From the NCBI GenBank assembly GCA_030614005.1, contig JAUWKS010000017.1:1-32000 (forward strand): a stretch of 32,000 bases of DNA, written 5' to 3'. Origin of the DNA: Candidatus Heimdallarchaeota archaeon (GTDB lineage: Archaea > Asgardarchaeota > Heimdallarchaeia > JABLTI01). The translations under genes were made by a program, and so were the position numbers. The notes under the pieces are model-generated. The model made no database searches. It had not been told where the DNA came from and saw only the letters and a list, made by a program, of their open reading frames with translations. Below, piece by piece: positions 17,896 to 31,683 of this stretch. How positions within the stretch are numbered: the first letter of the stretch is position 1; each line of letters opens with the position of its first letter.

Positions 17896-19263
17896 ATGGG
17901 TAAAATTACAGATCCAATCTACGAGCAAGTGGTTAAGCGAAATGCTCACGAACCAGAATTCCATCAAGCAGTGAAGGAAGTTCTTGATTCAATTGAGCCA
18001 GCTCTAGAACAACACCCAGAATTTGTTGAAGCAAGAATTGTCGAGAGACTAGTAGAACCTGAAAGAATAATTACTTTCAGAGTTCCATGGGTCGATGACA
18101 AAGGTGTTGTCCAAGTAAACAGAGGGTTCAGAATCCAATTTAATGGTGCAATAGGACCTTACAAAGGTGGAATGAGATTCCATCCATCCGTATATGACGG
18201 AATTCTAAAGTTCTTAGCTTTTGAACAAATTTTCAAAAACGCACTTACCGGTTTGCCTATGGGCGGTGGTAAAGGTGGTTCTGATTTCGATCCAAAAGGT
18301 AAATCAGATGGAGAAGTTATGCGCTTCTGTCAATCACTTATGCGAGAACTTTACAGACACATTGATGCTGACTTAGACGTTCCAGCCGGTGATATCGGTG
18401 TAGGTGGACGAGAAATAGGATATATGTTTGGTGCTTACAGAAAAATCAAAAACGTTTTCCATGGTGTTTTAACAGGCAAAGCCCCAGAATATGGGGGCTC
18501 TCTTGGCAGACCAGAAGCTACAGGTTATGGTGCCACATGGTTTGCAGAAAGTATGCTCAAATACAGAGGAGTAAAAGACGGCCTTAAAGGTAAGACTGTC
18601 GCCATTTCGGGTTCTGGGAATGTTGCACAATTTGCTACAGAAAAAGTAACCCAGTTAGGTGGTAAAGTAATTACTCTTTCTGATTCCACAGGTTTCATTG
18701 TTGATAACGATGGTATTGACAAGAAGAAATTGGAATTCGTTATGCACTTGAAGAATGTCAAACGAGGTAGAATTAAAGAATACGCAGACAAATACAAAGT
18801 TGACTATTATGTCTATAACGAACACAAAGACATCAAGAGTCCTTGGTATGTCCCAGGTATCGAAGTTGCACTTCCAAGCGCAACCCAGAACGAAGTTGAT
18901 TTAGGTGAAGCTAAAGCACTCTTAAAAAGTGGATGCTTAGCAGTGAGCGAAGGTGCAAACATGCCTTGTGTTGCTGAAGCAGTAGACTTGTTCATTGAGA
19001 AAGGAGTCTCCTTCGGTCCAGGTAAAGCAGCAAACGCTGGTGGTGTCGCTACTTCCGGTCTAGAAATGTCCCAAAATAGTTTGAGATATTCATGGACAAA
19101 AGACGAAGTATTAACCAGGCTTCACAAAATAATGGATAATATCCATGAAACTTGTGTAACAACAGCAGAAAAATATGGTAGCCCAGGAAACTATGTTATC
19201 GGAGCCAATATCGGTGGCTTCATGAAAGTTGCCAAAGCTATGCTCGCACAAGGTGTTATTTAA
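17896..19263 (+). CDS. gdhA: NADP-specific glutamate dehydrogenase
   Basis: GPYKGGMRFHPSV, KFLAFEQIFKNALTGLPMGGGKGGSDFDPKGKSD, DVPAGDIGVGGREIG, GSGNVAQ, KAANAGGVATSGLEMSQN. Confidence 0.97.
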   Translation: MGKITDPIYEQVVKRNAHEPEFHQAVKEVLDSIEPALEQHPEFVEARIVERLVEPERIITFRVPWVDDKGVVQVNRGFRIQFNGAIGPYKGGMRFHPSVYDGILKFLAFEQIFKNALTGLPMGGGKGGSDFDPKGKSDGEVMRFCQSLMRELYRHIDADLDVPAGDIGVGGREIGYMFGAYRKIKNVFHGVLTGKAPEYGGSLGRPEATGYGATWFAESMLKYRGVKDGLKGKTVAISGSGNVAQFATEKVTQLGGKVITLSDSTGFIVDNDGIDKKKLEFVMHLKNVKRGRIKEYADKYKVDYYVYNEHKDIKSPWYVPGIEVALPSATQNEVDLGEAKALLKSGCLAVSEGANMPCVAEAVDLFIEKGVSFGPGKAANAGGVATSGLEMSQNSLRYSWTKDEVLTRLHKIMDNIHETCVTTAEKYGSPGNYVIGANIGGFMKVAKAMLAQGVI

Positions 19264-22674: not shown

Positions 22675-22859
22675 ATCTAAAATGAAGATTTTTTTCCTCA
22701 CTTTTTTCTATTTGTTAGATTCAATGGACTTTTTATTGGATTATTTGTTTCCTAATAGCTGTTTTAGAATTCTTGTTTGGTAAAAATTACTTTCCAACTA
22801 AAATGGTATACCAATCAAAAATCTTAAAGAGGAGAGGGATTAAAATTTCGGCGATTCAA

Positions 22860-23330
22860 ATGGTAATAGAAAAAAAGGACTTGGATTTCTTCAAAGAATA
22901 CACAACTGAGAGTAGTTCCATTATCCCTTTACTGCAACAAATTCAAGATAAATTTGGTTATTTGCCTAGTGAAACTTTAGGTGAACTAGCCGATTATTTG
23001 GATGTTCCTTTGAGTAGAATTTATGGAGTAGCGACATTCTATTCCCAATTCAATTTTACTCCTCTTGGAAAATATGTAGTAAAGGTTTGTCATGGTACTG
23101 CTTGTCATGTCAATGGTGCGGTTGATATCGCAGATGAATTGATAGACATTTTTGGTATCAAAGAAGAAGAAACTACTTCGGATGGTTTAATCACACTTCA
23201 ATCTGTTGCTTGTTTAGGTTGTTGTAGCCTGGCACCTGTTGTTAGTGTGAATGATAAGGTTTACGGAAATTTGACGCGAGCAGATGTTCGACGTATAGCT
23301 AAAAAAATAGTTAAGGATGAATTTGAATGA
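22860..23330 (+). CDS. NuoE/HydC-like [2Fe-2S] subunit (StnA/Nso small-subunit-like)
   Basis: IPLLQQIQDKFGYLP, YGVATFYSQF, VCHGTACHVNG, ACLGCCSLAPV. ATG at 22860 is preferred. Confidence 0.92.
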   Translation: MVIEKKDLDFFKEYTTESSSIIPLLQQIQDKFGYLPSETLGELADYLDVPLSRIYGVATFYSQFNFTPLGKYVVKVCHGTACHVNGAVDIADELIDIFGIKEEETTSDGLITLQSVACLGCCSLAPVVSVNDKVYGNLTRADVRRIAKKIVKDEFE

Positions 23331-25107
23331 TCAAGAGAATTTGTGTTGGAATGAATTCTTGTGGTATTGCAGCAGGTGCTGAAGAGATAAAAGAATTCAT
23401 TGAGACTGAGTTTAAAGAACAGAACATTGAGCTAGAGATTAAAAATGTCGGTTGTACCGGTATGTGCTATCGTGAACCTTTAGTAGATATTGTTACAGAA
23501 GATATGATCTACACTTACGGTGATTAACAACCAAAAAGATGAAACAAATCATCGATAAGCATGTCGTCAAAGGAGAAATTGTTGAAGAGTTTCTCGTTAA
23601 AAAAGACGAATTTAAGTCCAAACCAGTTACCGTTTGGGATGTTGACAACTTTTTCTCGAAACAAGTCAAGATTATTTTAGAAAATTCAGGTTATATTGAC
23701 CCTGAGAAAATTGAAGAATACCTTGAAGTCGATGGTTACAAAGCGCTTGAAAAAGCTCTAAACATGACTGCTGAAGAAATTATTGATGTCCTTTCTAAAT
23801 CGGGTTTGCGTGGTAGAGGTGGTGCTGGTTTTCCAACCGCATTAAAATGGAAATTTACCAGACAAGCACAAGGTGCCCCTAAATATATTGTCTGCAATGC
23901 AGACGAAGGAGATCCCGGTGCTTTTATGAACAGAAATGTTTTGGAAGGGGACCCACACAAGGTTCTTGAAGGGATGATCATTGGCGCATATGTAATTGGC
24001 GCTCATCATGGTTTCATTTATTGCCGAGCTGAATATCCTCTTGCAATTAAGAGATTAGATATTGCAATCAAACAAGCACGAGAAAAAGGCTTCCTTGGTA
24101 AAGACATTCTTGGTTCTGGTTTTGATTTCGATATATCTATTATGGAAGGAGCAGGTGCTTTTGTCTGTGGAGAAGAAACGGCATTACTCGGTTCTCTTGA
24201 AGGCAAACGAGGTATGCCAAACCTTCGACCTCCCTATCCCTCAACAAAGGGTTACAAAGGTAAACCAACTAATATCAATAATGTAGAAACTTGGGCCAAT
24301 GTTCCTTGGATTTTACTAAATGGTTGGCAGAAATATATTACCATGGGATCTGAGAAGAGCAAAGGAACAAAAGTTTTCGCTTTAGCTGGAAAGATTAAGC
24401 GTGGTGGAAACGTAGAAGTTCCAATGGGTATGACCATCAAAGAAATCCTCATAGATATTGGTGGAGGAACAAAATCCGGCAAACCACTTAAAGCAGTGCA
24501 AATGGGTGGTCCTTCTGGCGGCTGTATTCCACTAGCTCTATTCGATACACCAGTTGATTATGAATCCATTAATGCTACCGGTGCTATTATGGGCAGTGGT
24601 GGAATGGTTGTAATGGACGAAGATTCCTGTATGATCGATATTGCGAAGTTCTTTTTAGATTTCACTGTTTTAGAATCGTGTGGTAAATGTGTCTACTGTC
24701 GACTTGGTACCAAAAGATTGTGGGAAATTCTTGATAGAATCTCAAAAGGAGAAGGTAAAATAGAAGACATTGACAAATTACTTGATTTATCTCCTAAAGT
24801 TAAAACAGGTTCTCTCTGTGGTTTGGGTCAAACAGCTCCAAATCCAGTTCTAACGACTATTCGATATTTCAGAGCTGAATATGAAGCACATATCAATAAC
24901 AAAAAATGTTCTGCCAAAGTTTGCAAACCATTGCTCACTTATACAATAAATGATGCTTGTACTGGTTGTCGCGCTTGTGCTAGAAAATGCCCAACAGATG
25001 CCATTACAGGAGACAAGAAAGGCATTCATGTTATTGATCAAGATAAATGCATTCAATGTGGTGCATGCTATCTAGCTTGTCGTTTTGAAGCAATAGATGT
25101 GGAGTGA
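23327..25107 (+). CDS. NuoF/HydB-like FMN/NADH subunit (StnB-like), split by a 1-nt frameshift at about 23522-23527 (593 aa if joined)
   Basis: N-terminal Trx-like [2Fe-2S] cysteines; SGLRGRGGAGFP, CNADEGDPGAFM, GAGAFVCGEET, GGPSGGC, ESCGKCVYCR, SLCGLG; C-terminal 2x[4Fe-4S]. GGT GAT TAA + CAA...; adding one T gives GDLTTKKMKQII in frame with 23539. Confidence 0.9.
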
Positions 25108-25114
25108 ACAGCAA

Positions 25115-28048
25115 ATGAAAGTTAAAATAAATTCTGAAGAAAAAGAGTTCCCAGAAAAAACATCAATTATGGACTATTTGTTGCAAAACAACCGTCATAT
25201 TGCCGGAGTTTGCAAAGTGAAAGAGCTTGATCCTTATGGCTCTTGCAGATTATGCTTAGTTGAAATCAACGGTCGTCTATTACCTGCTTGTGCAACCTAT
25301 CCAAGAGAAAATGATTCTATAAATATCAATAACAATGTTGTGATTAATAGTAGAAAAACTGCTCTCGAATTGATGCTCTCCGACCATTTTGGAGATTGTA
25401 TCGGACCCTGTAATGATGGATGTCCATCAAAAAGTGAAGTTCAAAACTATCTCGCATTAATTGCAATGGGTAAACATCACGAAGCCGTTGCTCTAATGAA
25501 GCAAGATTATATTTTACCTGCCGCACTTGGTCGTGTCTGTCCAGCATTCTGCGAAGATGCTTGCAGAAGGAATCTAGTTGAAGGTCCAGTCGCAATTCGC
25601 GAAGCAAAACGATTTGCAGCGGATTATGATTTAGAACATGGACCTTGGATGCCTGACATTCCAAAAGAAACTGGTAAAAGTGTTGGTATTGTTGGTGGTG
25701 GACCTGCAGGTCTTGCAGCTGCATTTTATCTACGCGTCAAAGGACACAAAATTACTATCTATGAATCTCTCCCAGAACTTGGCGGTATGTTGCGATATGG
25801 TATACCTGAATATCGTTTACCAAAAGCAATTCTAGATAAAGACATCGATACAGTAATTAAAACAGGTATTGAAGTAAAAACTAACACAACGGTCAGTGTA
25901 GATATTACACTTGAAGAGTTACAAATGAAACACGATGCTGTTTTTGTTGGTATTGGTGCTTGGAAAGTCTACAAACCAAGAGTTGACAATTGTGAAATAG
26001 TAGGTGTTTTAGATGCAATTGATTTCTTAAAACGAACAGCAATGGGTGAGAAAATCGATATCGGTAAAAACGTAATGGTTGTCGGTGGAGGCAACAGTGC
26101 AATGGATGTTGCTCGAACTTGCATACGACTTGGAGCAAACGTTTCACTTTCTTACAGCCGAACCAAAAATGAAATGCCAGCACGACAAATCGAAATCGAA
26201 GAAGCAGAAGATGAAGGTGTTAATTTTCTTATTCTATCTAATCCAGTAAATATCATTGGCGATGGAAAGATCCAAGAAGTAGAATTAGTTAGAATGGAGC
26301 TTGGTGAACCAGATGAAAGTGGTCGGTGTCGACCAATTGTTTGTGATGGGTCAAATTATTGCGTTGATGTAGACACAGTCATCTTTGCAATTGGACAAAG
26401 ACCAGATTATGAGCTCTTAGCTCAACATGGTTTGGAACATCATAGCTGGGGTGGTGCAAGATATGATGAAATCACATATGAAACAAACCTCCCAGGAGTG
26501 TTTGTTGGTGGAGATGTAGCAATTGGTGCAGCCACCGTCATTGAAGCAATTGCAACGTCTAAAAATGCAGCGCAAATGATTGACTTTTACCTCAAAGGTA
26601 CTCTACCTAAAATCCGAGAGATTATTAAAGAACCTTCGAAACATCTTGATGAAATTTATTCTGATGAAAAGCTCAAAGAATTCCTCTTGAAATATTATCC
26701 CTATAATCATTGGAAGAAAGTTACTGAAGAAGATTACAAAGATAGAAAACGACAAGAAAGAGCAAAAACAAAGCTCCTTCCAGCAAAGGAACGAGCAAAA
26801 ACGTTCGATGAAGTTGAACTAACTCATTCAGAAGAAGACATTTTGAAGGAAACTGAAAGATGTATGTCTTGTGGTTGTCTTGATTCTTTTGATTGCAAAT
26901 TGAGAGAATACTCTATGATGTATAATGCTAAACAAGATACTTTTGAAGGAGAATTACAATCCGATGTTGTAGATGAATCACATCCTCATGTTATTCTTGA
27001 TAACAACAAGTGTATTTTGTGTGGCAGATGTATTAATTTAACTCACGAAATAACTGGCGAAGGGTTAATTGATAATCTCAACCGAGGATTTACAACTAAA
27101 AATGGCCCCCCTCCAGGAACTAAGCTTGGTGAAGTTAAAGGTGATTTCATCGGTCAATTTGTTGATGAATGTCCAACAGGTGCATTTGCACTTACAACTC
27201 CTTATCCAAAAGATGGTCCTTGGAATGTTACTCCCAAACCAACTGTCTGTAATGACTGTGGTATGGGTTGTGAAATGAATATTGATATCTACAAAGGAAT
27301 CCCAGTAAACGTTTCAACTATTGATAACTCTTGGAATCATGGTTTAGTTTGTGATAAACCAAGATTTGGCAGAAGTTGGGAGAAAAGCGTAGAAAAGCCT
27401 ATGCAAAAAGATGGCAGTAAATTCAAAGAAATCTCTGATGATAAAGCTAAAGCTATTCTCAAAGATCATCTCGAGAGTTTAGCCATTGTATTAACTCCCA
27501 GTGTAACGAATGATGAAGCACAAGAGTTAATGAAATTTGCAAAGGAACATAATTTTGCTATTGGAGCTATCTACGACGAAGGTATTTCTACAACCAAATT
27601 TGCTACTATTTTTACTAGCAAACGTATACAATTGGATGTTGATTTATCAGACTATCCCGTATTGAAAACATTTATCCACATTGCAAAGAAACAAGGTGCA
27701 ATCATTACTAACGAAGAACCAGATATTGCTATAGTTAATGCACCAGCAAAACCAAAAGACATTCCAACAATTATTATGCACAAAGGACTGAATGAAGTAG
27801 GACTTATGCAGCTCGGTTTGAAAATGATTCCAAAAGCAAAGAATTACCTTGTTATTGGATCATCTGATAAAAAGTTCAAAGGATTCACCATATCTATGGG
27901 TGAAAACAAGAACGCCGATTTAGTCTTACCCCTACCAGCTTGGTTGAATAGAACCGGCAAAGTAGTTACTTCAGAAGGTCGTGAATTAGAAGTTAAACAG
28001 GTCTTAGATGGACCGTCCATTATGAAGATTTTGCAATCTTACTTCTAA
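25115..28048 (+). CDS. Large GltD-like plus NuoG-like Fe-S flavoprotein with a truncated molybdopterin-oxidoreductase tail (StnC/NsoC-like, 977 aa)
   Basis: N-terminal [2Fe-2S] (C..GSCRLC..C); GltD clusters (DCIGPC..CP, GRVCPAFCEDAC); GGGPAG (FAD); GGGNSAMD (NADPH); RCMSCGC; CILCGRC; CNDCGMGC..C; short Mo-domain remnant. ATG at 25115 follows GGAGTGA. Confidence 0.85.
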   Translation: MKVKINSEEKEFPEKTSIMDYLLQNNRHIAGVCKVKELDPYGSCRLCLVEINGRLLPACATYPRENDSININNNVVINSRKTALELMLSDHFGDCIGPCNDGCPSKSEVQNYLALIAMGKHHEAVALMKQDYILPAALGRVCPAFCEDACRRNLVEGPVAIREAKRFAADYDLEHGPWMPDIPKETGKSVGIVGGGPAGLAAAFYLRVKGHKITIYESLPELGGMLRYGIPEYRLPKAILDKDIDTVIKTGIEVKTNTTVSVDITLEELQMKHDAVFVGIGAWKVYKPRVDNCEIVGVLDAIDFLKRTAMGEKIDIGKNVMVVGGGNSAMDVARTCIRLGANVSLSYSRTKNEMPARQIEIEEAEDEGVNFLILSNPVNIIGDGKIQEVELVRMELGEPDESGRCRPIVCDGSNYCVDVDTVIFAIGQRPDYELLAQHGLEHHSWGGARYDEITYETNLPGVFVGGDVAIGAATVIEAIATSKNAAQMIDFYLKGTLPKIREIIKEPSKHLDEIYSDEKLKEFLLKYYPYNHWKKVTEEDYKDRKRQERAKTKLLPAKERAKTFDEVELTHSEEDILKETERCMSCGCLDSFDCKLREYSMMYNAKQDTFEGELQSDVVDESHPHVILDNNKCILCGRCINLTHEITGEGLIDNLNRGFTTKNGPPPGTKLGEVKGDFIGQFVDECPTGAFALTTPYPKDGPWNVTPKPTVCNDCGMGCEMNIDIYKGIPVNVSTIDNSWNHGLVCDKPRFGRSWEKSVEKPMQKDGSKFKEISDDKAKAILKDHLESLAIVLTPSVTNDEAQELMKFAKEHNFAIGAIYDEGISTTKFATIFTSKRIQLDVDLSDYPVLKTFIHIAKKQGAIITNEEPDIAIVNAPAKPKDIPTIIMHKGLNEVGLMQLGLKMIPKAKNYLVIGSSDKKFKGFTISMGENKNADLVLPLPAWLNRTGKVVTSEGRELEVKQVLDGPSIMKILQSYF

Positions 28049-28285
28049 TTTCTTTTTTCATTTAATTGAAAGGACATCATTGTGATTTCCTTTCATAAAA
28101 TCTTTTATTCTAAAAATCAAATTTTTCCTATTTTAATAAGTTTAGAGTTAGTCTTTTTTAACTAGAAAGCATTATTTATTTAATTAATTCATTTTAAGGA
28201 ATTGATATTTCAACATTTGATTAAGTAAACCAAATCTTTAATGAACATTCTTGAGATTAATGAATATATTACGAAGTGAAATTAA

Positions 28286-29893
28286 ATGGCAGAAGAAGTA
28301 AACCTTGATTTATTGGATTTAAAAGTGATGTATCCAAATACAATGCTATTAGATTATATAAATAAAAAAGAATCAATGTCAAAATTCTTTGGAGGCGTTT
28401 ATGATAAAATGCATCCAGTCAAATTCCGAGGAGATCGAGGAATAATAAAGGATATTTTAATGAAATATAATAAATCAATTAATGCTCAAAGTAAGGTTTT
28501 CGAAAATATTGAGTCAATTGAAAACGAAGATGTAAAATTTGTTATTACTGGTCAACAACCAGGCCTTTTCACTGGGCCCATGTATACCATCTATAAAACA
28601 TTCTCAGCAATAAATTATGCAAAAAAGTATTCTACTGATGATGTAAAGCTTGTACCATTATTTTGGAATGCTTCTGAAGATCACGATGTTGAAGAAGTAG
28701 ATAATATTTGGATTTTAAATAAAAAAAATGATGTTAAGCATATTAAATTCGATAGTAGTGCTTTATTAGGAAAGAGTTTGGAGAATGTCCAAATTGAACA
28801 TAACCATTTTGATACTCTTCTTACTAAAATGAAAAGTTCGTTTGTAGAAACAGAATTTTCTGACTCCATTTTTGATATGTTAAGTGGCATACTCAAGAAA
28901 TCAGAAAAATGGGGCGAGTTCTTTAGCAGGACACTTTCTTTCTTGATGGGAGAATGGGGCCTTATTTTACTTGAGCCTAAAATTCTACGTCCTCATTTGA
29001 AAGATTATTTCACGGTAGTTCTTAATAACACAGTAAAGTATAACTCTATCTTCCAAAAAACTACTGATGGTTTGACAGATTTAAGTTACAAACCTAAAAT
29101 GCATAAGAAAGAAAATATCGCAGGATTATTCTACATTGATGAGGAATTAAATAGATTAACTATAACACTTAAAGAAAAAGGAATGTATGAATTATCTGAT
29201 GGTAAAACATTTACTCGAGAAGAAATTCTTAATGAAGTTCAAACTCATCCTGAGCAATTCAGTACTAATGCTATTTTTCGACCACTTGCTCAAGATATAA
29301 TGATTCCAACACATGTTTTTGTTGGAGGTCCATCAGAAATTGGTTACCATATCCAAATCAAAGATTTGTATAAGGAGTTTGATTTAACTCAACCTAATGT
29401 TGTTTTTAGAATGGGTGCAACAGTAATTGAAAGGCATATTAATAAAATAATTGAGAAATACAACTTTTCAATCACGGAATTGCGCGATTTGAATAGATTG
29501 AGCTCAAAGCTTGTTGCTAGTGAAAGCGAATATAAATTGCAAGGGCATTTCAATAATATTTCTGAAATATTAGATACGATGAATACAGAGCTAAATGATT
29601 ATAATAAAGAACTTGGCTCTCGAGTTCAACATCGTAAAAAATCCATAATGAAAGAATTAGAAAATATTGAGAAGATGTATATTAAATATGTCAAAAATGA
29701 CAACCAACTTTTGACCAATCAATTAACTAAGACTCGAGCTTATTTATTCCCAAGTGATAAACCTCAAGAACGAATGTTTAATATCTTCCAATATCTTAAC
29801 AAGTATTCATTAACTCTCCTAGATTGTATGAGAAATCTCTTAACAAAAGATCAACCAGGAAAACATGTGGTATTAAAATGTTGGATGTTTTAG
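28286..29893 (+). CDS. bshC: Bacillithiol cysteine-adding enzyme BshC
   Basis: ITGQQPGLFTGPMYTIYK, FWNASEDHD, STNAIFRPLAQD, FVGGPSEIGY, coiled-coil insert, KPQERMFN. Confidence 0.93.
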   Translation: MAEEVNLDLLDLKVMYPNTMLLDYINKKESMSKFFGGVYDKMHPVKFRGDRGIIKDILMKYNKSINAQSKVFENIESIENEDVKFVITGQQPGLFTGPMYTIYKTFSAINYAKKYSTDDVKLVPLFWNASEDHDVEEVDNIWILNKKNDVKHIKFDSSALLGKSLENVQIEHNHFDTLLTKMKSSFVETEFSDSIFDMLSGILKKSEKWGEFFSRTLSFLMGEWGLILLEPKILRPHLKDYFTVVLNNTVKYNSIFQKTTDGLTDLSYKPKMHKKENIAGLFYIDEELNRLTITLKEKGMYELSDGKTFTREEILNEVQTHPEQFSTNAIFRPLAQDIMIPTHVFVGGPSEIGYHIQIKDLYKEFDLTQPNVVFRMGATVIERHINKIIEKYNFSITELRDLNRLSSKLVASESEYKLQGHFNNISEILDTMNTELNDYNKELGSRVQHRKKSIMKELENIEKMYIKYVKNDNQLLTNQLTKTRAYLFPSDKPQERMFNIFQYLNKYSLTLLDCMRNLLTKDQPGKHVVLKCWMF

Positions 29894-30561
29894 TTTTTGG
29901 CCCCCATCCTGATGATGCCGAACTTGGTGCAGGTGGAGCAATAGCAAAAGCTGTTGCAGAAGGATTGAAAGTAGGCATTATTGATCTAACTGCTGGTGAA
30001 ATGGGTACACTCGGTACTAAGGAAATTCGTTTGAAAGAAGCAGAAAGTGCTTCAAAAATACTTGGTGTGAAATTCAGAGAAAATCTAGGATTACCAGATG
30101 GATATATTGGTTTAGATATTTCACAAGAAGACATTTTTGCAGTAGCAAAGAAAATTCGTCAATATCAACCTAAAATTGTCTTAGCACCATATTGGGATGA
30201 CAGGCACCCAGATCATGCTGCTAGTTCGGAGATAATCACTAAAGCAGCTCATTATGCAAAATTGAAAAAATTTAATCTTGAACATCCGCAACATAAAATT
30301 CAACAACTTATCTATTATGAATTAAATGGTCAATTTACTCCATCATATATTATAGATGTAAGCGACTTTTTTGAACAAAAAAAAGAAGCAATAATGAGTC
30401 ATAAATCTCAATTTAAAGAGTTTTCAAAAGAATATCTTCCTTTTCCTTTAGTTGAAAGATGTGCCTATTATGGGTCATTAATTAATGCCTCTTATGGTGA
30501 GGCCTTTATGGTAAAAGGCTCGTTAAAAGTTGATAAATGGGAAGTCATTATAAATAAATGA
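29878..30561 (+). CDS. bshB1: GlcNAc-malate deacetylase BshB1 (PIG-L family)
   Basis: VFGPHPDDAELGAGG, DLTAGEMGT, RENLGLPDG, DRHPDH. ATG at 29878 overlaps the end of bshC by 16 nt. Confidence 0.9.
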   Translation: MLDVLVFGPHPDDAELGAGGAIAKAVAEGLKVGIIDLTAGEMGTLGTKEIRLKEAESASKILGVKFRENLGLPDGYIGLDISQEDIFAVAKKIRQYQPKIVLAPYWDDRHPDHAASSEIITKAAHYAKLKKFNLEHPQHKIQQLIYYELNGQFTPSYIIDVSDFFEQKKEAIMSHKSQFKEFSKEYLPFPLVERCAYYGSLINASYGEAFMVKGSLKVDKWEVIINK

Positions 30562-30588
30562 TAATTTACTATATCCGAGGATATTACG

Positions 30589-31683
30589 ATGAAAATTGGT
30601 ATAATTAATTATCCCACATTTGGTGGTAGTGGAATTGTTGGTACTGAGTTGGGATTAGAGCTTCAAAAAAGAGGACACGAAGTTCATTTTATTTCCTATC
30701 AAATACCTGAACGATTAAAACTAGAAGAGGATTACATTTTTCATGAAGTCAATATTTTATCCTATCCTCTCTTTAAGTATAAACCTTATACGATTATCTT
30801 GGCATCTCTATTGCACAAGTTAGTTAATGAACATGAATTGGACATTCTCCACGGCCATTACGCAATCCCCCATGCGACATCATTGTATCTTGCAAAATTA
30901 AGTAATGATAAAGCGAAAATTATATCGACAATTCATGGTTCTGATATGCATCTTCTAGGTCTTGATGATGCGTACAAACCGATTTTAGTTAATAGTTTAA
31001 ATAATCATGATGCATTAACGACGGTATCCAAATGGATGAGACAATTCGTAGTAGACAATTACGATATGGAAAAAGATATTGATGTAATATATAATTTCGT
31101 AAACCCCAAGAAATTTTCCAACATTAAAAAACCAGTAAAAGAGGAAGTTGTTTTTTGCCATGTTTCTAACTTTAGAAAAGTCAAGCGCTCACCAGATATT
31201 GTTAAAGCATTTGCAATCGAAGCAGAGAAATATAATCATATCAGATTAGAAATGATAGGAGAAGGTCCTGAACGAGAATATTGTCGAGATTTAGCAATAT
31301 CTTTAGGCATTAATGATAAGGTTGTGTTTAGAGGGAGCCTTCTTAATGTCCCTCGTGTTTTATGTTTTACTGATGTTTTTGTTATTCCCTCAGAAAAAGA
31401 AAGTTTTGGTTTGGCTGCTTTAGAAGCAATGGCTTGTAGTATACCAGTTATTTCTTCAAACGCAGGTGGTTTACCTGAAGTTGTTGAACATGAAAAGACT
31501 GGTTTTGTTATTGAACCGGGAGATATTGATGCTTTAGCGAAATATATGAACATTATGATTGAAGATGAACCTTTAAGAAAGAAATTAGGAAAAGCTTCTG
31601 CTCAACGTGCTAAGGGAGTATTCCATCCTGATAAAATCATCCCTCAATATGAATCATTATACAAGAAAGTGATTGAAAAATAA
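30589..31683 (+). CDS. bshA: GlcNAc-malate synthase BshA (GT4)
   Basis: YPTFGGSGIVGTELG, HGHYAIPHA, TIHGSD, VSNFRKVKR, KESFGLAALEAMAC. Confidence 0.93.
   Translation: MKIGIINYPTFGGSGIVGTELGLELQKRGHEVHFISYQIPERLKLEEDYIFHEVNILSYPLFKYKPYTIILASLLHKLVNEHELDILHGHYAIPHATSLYLAKLSNDKAKIISTIHGSDMHLLGLDDAYKPILVNSLNNHDALTTVSKWMRQFVVDNYDMEKDIDVIYNFVNPKKFSNIKKPVKEEVVFCHVSNFRKVKRSPDIVKAFAIEAEKYNHIRLEMIGEGPEREYCRDLAISLGINDKVVFRGSLLNVPRVLCFTDVFVIPSEKESFGLAALEAMACSIPVISSNAGGLPEVVEHEKTGFVIEPGDIDALAKYMNIMIEDEPLRKKLGKASAQRAKGVFHPDKIIPQYESLYKKVIEK

Follow-up and report, generated by a model that had tools for sequence, protein, structure and literature searches.

Does an Asgard archaeon of the Heimdall group carry a complete pathway for the synthesis of bacillithiol (BSH) in its own chromosome and, if so, how did it come by the genes and what do they make? 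Archaeal homologues of these genes were already known. For instance, Rawat and Maupin-Furlow (2020) reported 39 archaeal InterPro matches each for BshA and BshC, mostly in Asgard archaea, and BSH itself has never been detected in archaea (PMC7278568). Additionally, the PGAP/GenBank annotation already gives Bsh names to the proteins described here, so the initial annotation was right in supposing that surveys had flagged bsh homologues in Asgard genomes. A 2025 RefSeq-based survey listed no archaea with the full BSH pathway (PMC12719100); this archaeal absence reflects the choice of database, not biology.

In the window (the whole 32,000-nt stretch of DNA that was analysed), three co-directional open reading frames form the locus, together with the following signals:

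28049..28285, + strand: intergenic spacer 5′ of bshC, 237 nt, AT-rich, with A/T-rich TATA-like stretches (read directly); presumed promoter region of bshC
28275-28279, + strand: AGTGA, Shine-Dalgarno-like motif, 6 nt before the bshC ATG
28286..29893, + strand: bshC, 535 aa, putative cysteine-adding enzyme
29878..30561, + strand: bshB1, 227 aa, Zn-dependent GlcNAc-Mal N-deacetylase of the PIG-L/LmbE fold, by homology
30577..30581, + strand: GAGGA, Shine-Dalgarno-like motif (presumed function), 7 nt before the bshA ATG, within the 27-nt spacer
30589..31683, + strand: bshA, 364 aa, GT4 retaining glycosyltransferase, by homology

The 16-nt bshC/bshB1 overlap and the 27-nt bshB1/bshA gap described in the initial annotation are both exact. 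The first arises because bshB1 starts at ATG 29878, where its reading begins MLDVLVFGPHPDD, and the bshC stop codon occupies 29891-29893; TTG 29824, which the ORF tool listed as the start of bshB1, was rejected. The second lies between the bshB1 stop codon (30559-30561) and the bshA ATG at 30589. As the next gene (31702-32364) is convergent, bshA is the last gene of the operon. The three genes would be transcribed as a single RNA, probably from a promoter in the AT-rich spacer. The overlap, which is kept in congeners, makes translational coupling of bshC and bshB1 likely, and bshA, preceded by its short spacer, may be served by the GAGGA motif.

The identity of the three proteins is supported by equivalog-level models, full-length alignments and conserved motifs, in agreement with the complete operon and intact diagnostic motifs originally described. 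BshA scores 406 bits on TIGR03999 (cut-off 274) and has both domains of the GT4 architecture (Glyco_transf_4 and Glycos_transf_1). Its residues 1-362 align with B. anthracis BshA (2JJM/3MBO, 286 bits), with which it shares the blocks GGSG, HYAIPHA, SNFRKVKR and EKESFGL..LEAMA (EX7E), and it also aligns with the B. subtilis (5D00) and S. aureus (6D9T) enzymes. BshB1 reaches 237 bits on TIGR04001 (cut-off 182.5), compared with 66 and 32 bits on the sister models BshB2 and Mca, and aligns with TT1542 (1UAN, 177 bits), BC1534 (2IXD) and BshB1 6P2T. In the alignments, 1UAN and 2IXD share its motifs HPDD (9-12) and HPDH (110-113), which contain the residues that we take, from BC1534, to be the His/Asp/His zinc ligands of the PIG-L fold. 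BshC scores 386 bits on TIGR03998 (cut-off 266), has both the Rossmann-like and the coiled-coil domains (PF10079, 278 bits; PF24850, 75 bits) and aligns over its full length with B. subtilis BshC (4WBD, 177 bits). It carries the motifs common to canonical BshCs, GQQPGLFTGPMYTIYK (89-104), FWNASEDHD (126-134) and RPLAQD...GGPSEIGY (332-354), which agree with the B. subtilis signatures GQQxGLxTGPxYTxxK, EDHD and RPxxQ...GPxEIxY.

The operon is not a general feature of Asgard archaea. Of 399 Asgard genomes, 11 have a canonical BshC, essentially all in one family, and the canonical operon is a family-level trait rather than an Asgard-wide or ancestral one. About 134 other genomes of the same sample, corresponding to about a third of the sampled Asgard species and including sister families of the same class, carry another cluster, in which BshA is accompanied by a PIG-L deacetylase and a strongly divergent BshC-like protein. 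This cluster contains the same three folds as the canonical operon but differs from it in gene order and orientation. The BshA of this cluster scores above the TIGR03999 cut-off (285-398 bits), the deacetylase falls below the BshB1 cut-off, and the BshC-like protein (about 20-25% identical, 20-112 bits on TIGR03998) lacks the EDHD and RPxxQD motifs. In Candidatus Heimdallarchaeaceae, NCBI uses the name “bacillithiol biosynthesis protein BshC” for it. The operon-bearing genome analysed here showed no trace of the divergent cluster, and canonical BshC was absent from genomes with the divergent cluster; the two were mutually exclusive among the genomes examined.

Nor is the contiguous C-B-A order peculiar to this genome, as it is also found in a Bathyarchaeota genome (CP070835.1), in a TFB-bearing unassigned archaeal contig and in a MAG labelled Actinomycetes; in Melioribacter, bshC is solitary. 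In the complete genome CP070835.1 the order is the same, the genes overlap or abut and the flanks are archaeal, and Bathyarchaeota-type BshC is the nearest non-Asgard clade, although it belongs to a different archaeal phylum and, at about 34% identity, is deeply diverged. One relative has an IS200/IS605 element between bshC and bshB. In the BshC tree, the Heimdall clade (support 100/100) is nested in a starred group that also takes in sequences labelled Bathyarchaeota and unnamed ones. Sequences of the Ignavibacteria type fall outside this group, and a branch of about 3.5 substitutions per site leads to the other Asgard BshC-like proteins. These relationships apply to trees built without BshC from Firmicutes, Deinococcota, Chlorobiota and named Bacteroidota. 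A scan of genome contigs returned only 6 Heimdall-type loci.

The initial annotation had suggested phylogenies as a means of finding the donor and of following vertical spread in Asgard archaea. Vertical inheritance holds within the genus and the family, to which the canonical form is essentially confined. That Bathyarchaeota and a single MAG with a bacterial label share the C-B-A order points to the transfer of the three genes as a unit, and the operon belongs to a BshC subclade with this common order that comprises Bathyarchaeota, other uncultured archaea and that MAG. Phylogeny alone is no proof of lateral transfer, because AU tests did not reject trees in which the genes of the family group with their divergent Asgard counterparts (BshC, p=0.17; BshA, p=0.50). 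The canonical operon might instead go back to an ancient Asgard paralogue, or represent the ancestral form, and have survived in this family alone, with a fast-evolving second version retained by the other Asgard lineages. Together with the AU tests, this reading is favoured by the trichotomy in the BshA tree and by a fully native codon usage (bshC, bshB1 and bshA lie at the 34th-78th percentile of distance from the genome mean). We nevertheless consider it unlikely. The divergent clade joins sister families of the same class and two or more further groups of the phylum with 98-100% support, so the split would predate the class, and the canonical form would have to have been lost many times independently; in addition, canonical BshC is confined to those few genomes, and the family's BshC groups with Bathyarchaeota and other sequences of the same gene order.

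We hold, with fairly high confidence, that this is a genuine and functional-looking C-B1-A operon of a Heimdall chromosome, encoding the bacillithiol pathway by homology and inherited vertically within the family, which was most likely acquired as a unit, replacing a divergent Asgard-type cluster. A more speculative extension, which we put forward only tentatively, is that Asgard archaea harbour two non-orthologous pathways to cysteinyl-glucosamine thiols: an old, Asgard-wide cluster, making an undescribed BSH-related thiol or using other cysteine-activation chemistry, and the canonical operon, which would have come from a Bathyarchaeota-like donor and displaced the old cluster in one Heimdall family, its thiol being recycled by a non-Bdr reductase.

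As for the product, the function of the operon is most likely the synthesis of bacillithiol or a close derivative, judging from the encoded proteins. By homology to the Bacillus enzymes, BshA would join UDP-GlcNAc and L-malate to form GlcNAc-Mal, BshB1 would deacetylate this intermediate through its His/Asp/His zinc site, and BshC would add cysteine to GlcN-malate, giving bacillithiol. In vitro reconstitution of the BshC step is still awaited even in Bacillus, as is the identification of the activated cysteine donor (PMC5790435); for this reason, the last step is assigned from bacterial genetics and homology. We likewise infer the product and its possible physiological roles (thiol buffering, detoxification, or metal or Fe-S handling).

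The proposal in the initial annotation that BSH serves as the redox buffer of this archaeon is weakened by the search for its usual partners in the family. Bdr/YpdA (TIGR04018) was not found in 12 family genomes (64-92% complete), in which the best match reached 89-92 bits against a cut-off of 340, while the same search was positive in the B. subtilis, Thermus and Deinococcus controls. BrxA/B (PF06491) and BrxC/YtxJ (TIGR04019) gave no match at E<=0.001 in the same 12 genomes, and thus neither the Bdr nor the bacilliredoxin component of a complete Firmicutes/Deinococcus-type BSH redox system was detected. TrxR-like flavoproteins of 309-310 aa are candidates for the reduction of BSSB; one is encoded on contig C11 of the operon-bearing genome, by an ORF that includes positions 1830-2492. 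Regarding other thiols, gamma-glutamylcysteine ligase was not found in the operon-bearing genome (90% complete): PF04262 had zero matches, and PF04107 (GshA-type) matched only a 49-residue fragment inside a 1081-aa ORF.

A different or modified thiol could also be the product. N-methyl-BSH, for instance, occurs in Chlorobiota and many Bacteroidota, and a cysteinyl-glucosamine built on another hydroxy-acid acceptor can equally be envisaged. The nearest bacterial relatives of this BshA are in fact those of Bacteroidota (45-48% identity), a group in which 63% of the species with the BSH pathway have NmbA (PMC12719100), and the lack of Bacillus-type recycling enzymes, which means that the downstream biology differs in any case, points in the same direction. 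By contrast, all three proteins pass equivalog-level BSH models, and the only methyltransferase in the window has no match to the NmbA structure 9RI2 at E<=1e-5. On balance, a product other than BSH seems to us distinctly improbable.

All these considerations presuppose that the genes belong to the archaeon. The operon occupies a central position in its 58-kb contig, between archaeal genes, and the closest relatives carry the label Candidatus Heimdallarchaeota. That the DNA is archaeal, as initially stated, is borne out by aRF1 (442 bits), archaeal SecY, a HAN nuclease and an RPA-like SSB in the window, and by Roadblock, UppS and Hef 3′ of the operon. Two other items cited as archaeal context fared less well: neither ARAGORN nor Rfam (at the gathering threshold and at E<=0.1) found a tRNA in the window, where a BHB tRNA had been proposed, although an intron-containing tRNA could escape both; and the supposed MptA is a FolE2/MptA-family GTP cyclohydrolase that scores 189 bits against an MptA equivalog cut-off of 220. 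The suggested check of synteny in related genomes was clearly positive: 7 further species of the genus have the operon between the same flanks, on contigs of up to 362 kb, with BshC identities of 57-87% and flanks that have diverged to a similar degree. Upstream, a 983-aa fusion adjoins the operon in four of these congeners; in the remaining three, its place is taken by a shorter (about 485-aa) GltD-like gene, either directly upstream or one ORF away. The upstream NuoE/NuoF/GltD-NuoG genes were considered as a functional partner of the operon and rejected as unsupported; the 237-nt spacer separates the 983-aa fusion from bshC.

Independent metagenome contigs from public runs (Logan contigs) bridge the junction at about 28.1 kb: one of 5.8 kb, from a different study, covers 26500-28755 and another, of 674 nt, covers 27710-28383, with no change in depth where the two sides meet. 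Bacterial contamination or a chimeric join near 28100, which the initial annotation had raised against its own reading and which could be suspected from the dip in GC to 0.28 at 28001-29000 and from BSH being classically a bacterial thiol, is excluded by the mid-contig position between archaeal genes, the identical synteny in the seven congeners, the bridging contigs from other studies and the native codon usage, and we give it practically no weight. The operon is genuine and resides in the chromosome of a Heimdall-group Asgard archaeon of marine-sediment or cold-seep communities.

Should BSH really be produced, this lineage would be the first among archaea to have a dedicated sugar-thiol redox cofactor, and it belongs to the class that is usually placed closest to eukaryotes; BSH would also prove able to work in the absence of Bdr and the bacilliredoxins, which are thought to go with it. 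Three points limit the significance: the genes had already been annotated and reviewed, the canonical operon is restricted to one family, and the product is predicted from the genes. The relevance initially proposed for the lineage closest to eukaryotes is likewise weak, since the canonical form is so rare and looks laterally acquired as a unit. The more useful lead is the contrast between the canonical operon and the widespread divergent Asgard cluster.

Among known systems, the mycothiol pathway of Actinomycetota (MshA, MshB and MshC) follows the same logic, with a GT4-made GlcNAc conjugate, PIG-L deacetylation and cysteine addition. However, the proteins of the window fall far below the Msh models (MshA, 76 vs 462 bits; MshB, 29 vs 224), and BshC is unrelated to the CysRS-like MshC. 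The BSH pathway of Bacillus and S. aureus is much closer: it has the same three families at equivalog level, with the zinc-site, EX7E and BshC motifs in common, and the solved BSH enzymes (2JJM, 5D00, 2IXD, 6P2T and 4WBD) give full-length alignments of 177-286 bits with the Heimdall proteins. The Heimdall family differs in that Bdr/YpdA, BrxA/B and YtxJ, which accompany BSH in Firmicutes and Deinococcus, were not found in its 12 genomes. It also differs in gene arrangement: in B. subtilis, as the initial annotation correctly stated, bshC is apart from the other two genes, located with panE, while bshB1-bshA are in the mgsA operon (PMC5790435), whereas in Heimdall the three genes form one C-B-A operon in an archaeal host.

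The window carries a canonical bacillithiol (BSH) operon in an unusual host, one that had already been flagged before, and the public PGAP names of the corresponding proteins are BshC and BshA. The three-gene operon described in the initial annotation was recovered with every protein above the cut-off of its TIGR family, while the sister models scored far more weakly on the same proteins (BshB2, 66 bits; MshA, 76; MshB, 29). The features involved are the following:

28286-31683, three open reading frames in the same direction, in the order bshC-bshB1-bshA (C-B-A)
bshC, BshC, 386 bits on TIGR03998 (cut-off 266)
bshB1, BshB1, ATG at 29878 and stop at 30561, 237 bits on TIGR04001 (cut-off 182.5)
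bshA, BshA, ATG at 30589, 406 bits on TIGR03999 (cut-off 274)
31702-32364, minus strand, gene 3′ of bshA and convergent to it

The TTG at 29824 proposed by the ORF tool as the start of bshB was ruled out, as the conserved N-terminus MLDVLVFGPHPDD begins at the ATG at 29878. With this start, the overlap with the bshC stop is exactly 16 nt and, as the start and stop codons also give a 27-nt gap (containing a GAGGA motif) between bshB and bshA, both previously reported spacings are exact. Since the next gene is convergent, the operon terminates with bshA. The product of that gene, a 220-aa protein without a family match, keeps its position in all congeners (the seven other species of the genus) and evolves fast, with 27-40% identity in most of them, compared with 57-87% for their BshC.

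The enzymes also appear intact when aligned to solved structures. BshA residues 1-362 align with B. anthracis BshA (2JJM/3MBO; 286 bits), as well as with the B. subtilis (5D00) and S. aureus enzymes, and keep the GGSG, HYAIPHA, SNFRKVKR and EX7E blocks. BshB1, alignable to Thermus TT1542 (1UAN), B. cereus BC1534 (2IXD) and BshB1 6P2T, retains the HPDD and HPDH motifs, and BshC, which can be aligned from end to end with its B. subtilis counterpart (4WBD; 177 bits), shares the signatures GQQ..GP.YT..K, EDHD and RP..Q...GP.EI.Y with canonical BshCs.

The 32-kb window opens a contig of 58 kb, part of a 3.6-Mb genome (90% complete, 3.4% contamination). The archaeal context originally described was borne out by SecY, HAN nuclease, an RPA-like SSB and aRF1 upstream, and by Roadblock/LC7, UppS, an HD protein and the Hef helicase-nuclease downstream; ARAGORN and Rfam detected no tRNA in the 32 kb, the one mentioned in the initial annotation included. 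A chimeric contig at about 28100 is ruled out by synteny and by independent assemblies. The bsh genes lie between the same neighbours, with the 16-nt overlap kept, in the seven congeners (contigs of up to 362 kb). Additionally, Logan contigs (assemblies of public runs) from independent cold-seep and marine-sediment studies carry this stretch, and the junction is bridged by a 5.8-kb Logan contig (26500-28755) and by another (27710-28383), with even depth on either side. In codon usage, the three genes do not stand out from the rest of the genome. In one sequencing run (X1), a single low-depth contig (2.4) joins 30394 back to 28103 through 11 foreign letters, with loose ends at 28123 and 30375; every other contig is colinear, and this join probably reflects faulty assembly or a rare variant.

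Directly upstream of bshC lie NuoE-like and NuoF-like genes and a 983-aa [2Fe-2S]/GltD/NuoG-like fusion (22773-28048), and nothing found ties them functionally to the bsh genes; the fusion is kept in four of the seven congeners, the other three carrying a shorter GltD-like gene (~485 aa). Further upstream, an NADP-specific glutamate dehydrogenase gene (17896-19263, plus strand) may have been laterally acquired: the general (non-archaeal) model PRK09414 gives it 720 bits, versus 217 for the archaeal GdhA model, and its GC content (0.41) and codon usage fall in the 99th and 91st percentiles of the genome, respectively.

Of the closest BshC and BshA homologues and the six related genome loci, most are labelled Candidatus Heimdallarchaeota archaeon, and sister families of the class are labelled Heimdallarchaeaceae. 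Public labels are nevertheless inconsistent for this genus, as Bsh relatives of the same clade in congeneric MAGs (P0018/L026, P0007, P0123, P0124; 58-80% identical) are labelled Bathyarchaeia, Thorarchaeota or Zixibacteria.

BshC above cut-off is present in 11 of 399 Asgard genomes, ten of them (the window's included) in this genus; in the only other genome of the family, from genus g2, the copy breaks off at a contig end and scores just under the cut-off. The eleventh, on the 5331-bp contig C95 of G285 (locus L038), belongs to a MAG of another Asgard family; no other canonical bshC-bshB-bshA lies outside the window's family. This operon is 49-68% identical and basal to the Heimdall clade, and it may result from mis-binning or from a distinct transfer. 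A BshA that passes the TIGR03999 cut-off is much commoner (145/399), with carriers in the majority of sister families and in two or three further groups of the phylum; it was found in none of 135 genomes of the largest sampled family and none of 22 of another family of the class.

Outside the window's family, BshA adjoins, in the genomes examined, a divergent BshC-like protein of 535-605 aa, named "bacillithiol biosynthesis protein BshC" at NCBI, which shows only ~20-25% identity, reaches 20-112 bits on TIGR03998 and has neither the EDHD nor the RPxxQD motif. Next to the pair there is usually a PIG-L deacetylase. Loci of this divergent cluster, with BshA above the TIGR03999 cut-off, are:

L029, 2864-5643 and 16059-16763
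L034, 2501-6198
L051-L058, for instance L052, 2590-6293

Both clusters are mutually exclusive in the genomes examined, and no trace of the divergent one was found in the window's genome.

BSH synthesis proceeds from UDP-GlcNAc and L-malate through deacetylation to cysteine addition (PMC7278568, PMC5790435), although the BshC reaction has not been reconstituted in vitro to date (PMC5790435). A predicted capacity for BSH synthesis in this archaeon is well supported. A 2025 RefSeq-only survey reported the full pathway in no archaeon (PMC12719100), and none of the papers searched offers an experimental link of bacillithiol with Heimdallarchaeia. The operon of the initial annotation is confirmed and its interpretation supported in part; a role of BSH as the main redox buffer is not well supported: among the 12 genomes of the family, with positive controls, neither YtxJ nor BrxA/B was found, and no Bdr/YpdA exceeded the cut-off (best, ~90 bits versus 340). 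The window's genome also yielded no GshA-type ligase, so that BSH may nevertheless be its sole dedicated thiol.

Regarding its origin, we consider it rather probable that the canonical operon was acquired as a unit, displacing the older divergent cluster. In the BshC tree, the Heimdall canonical clade (support 100/100) lies inside a starred group that also contains unnamed sequences and others labelled Bathyarchaeota, with Ignavibacteria-type BshC outside, and a branch of ~3.5 substitutions per site leads to the divergent Asgard clade. The BshA tree splits three ways without resolution (family clade, divergent Asgard clade, and Bathyarchaeota plus Bacteroidota), and a union of the first two is not rejected by AU tests (p=0.17 for BshC and p=0.50 for BshA). 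The divergent clade brings together sister families of the class and further groups of the phylum and, taken together with the trees and the recurrent C-B-A order, this favours acquisition as a unit over ancient paralogy with differential loss.

That order is shared by a TFB-bearing archaeal contig and an Actinomycetes-labelled MAG, and a related operon (L060:5001-10807; GCA_027491455.1) is interrupted between bshC and bshB-bshA by an IS200/IS605 element (Y1 transposase and OrfB/TnpB) and a metallo-beta-lactamase-fold gene. The complete Candidatus Bathyarchaeota genome CP070835.1, although from another archaeal phylum, has the same overlapping bshC-bshB-bshA operon as the window (L049:8001-11403, on a 1.92-Mb contig), flanked by DNA polymerase B (PolB), ribosomal proteins S12 and S7, and EF-1alpha. 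By contrast, bshC is solitary in Melioribacter, as it is in B. subtilis (PMC5790435).
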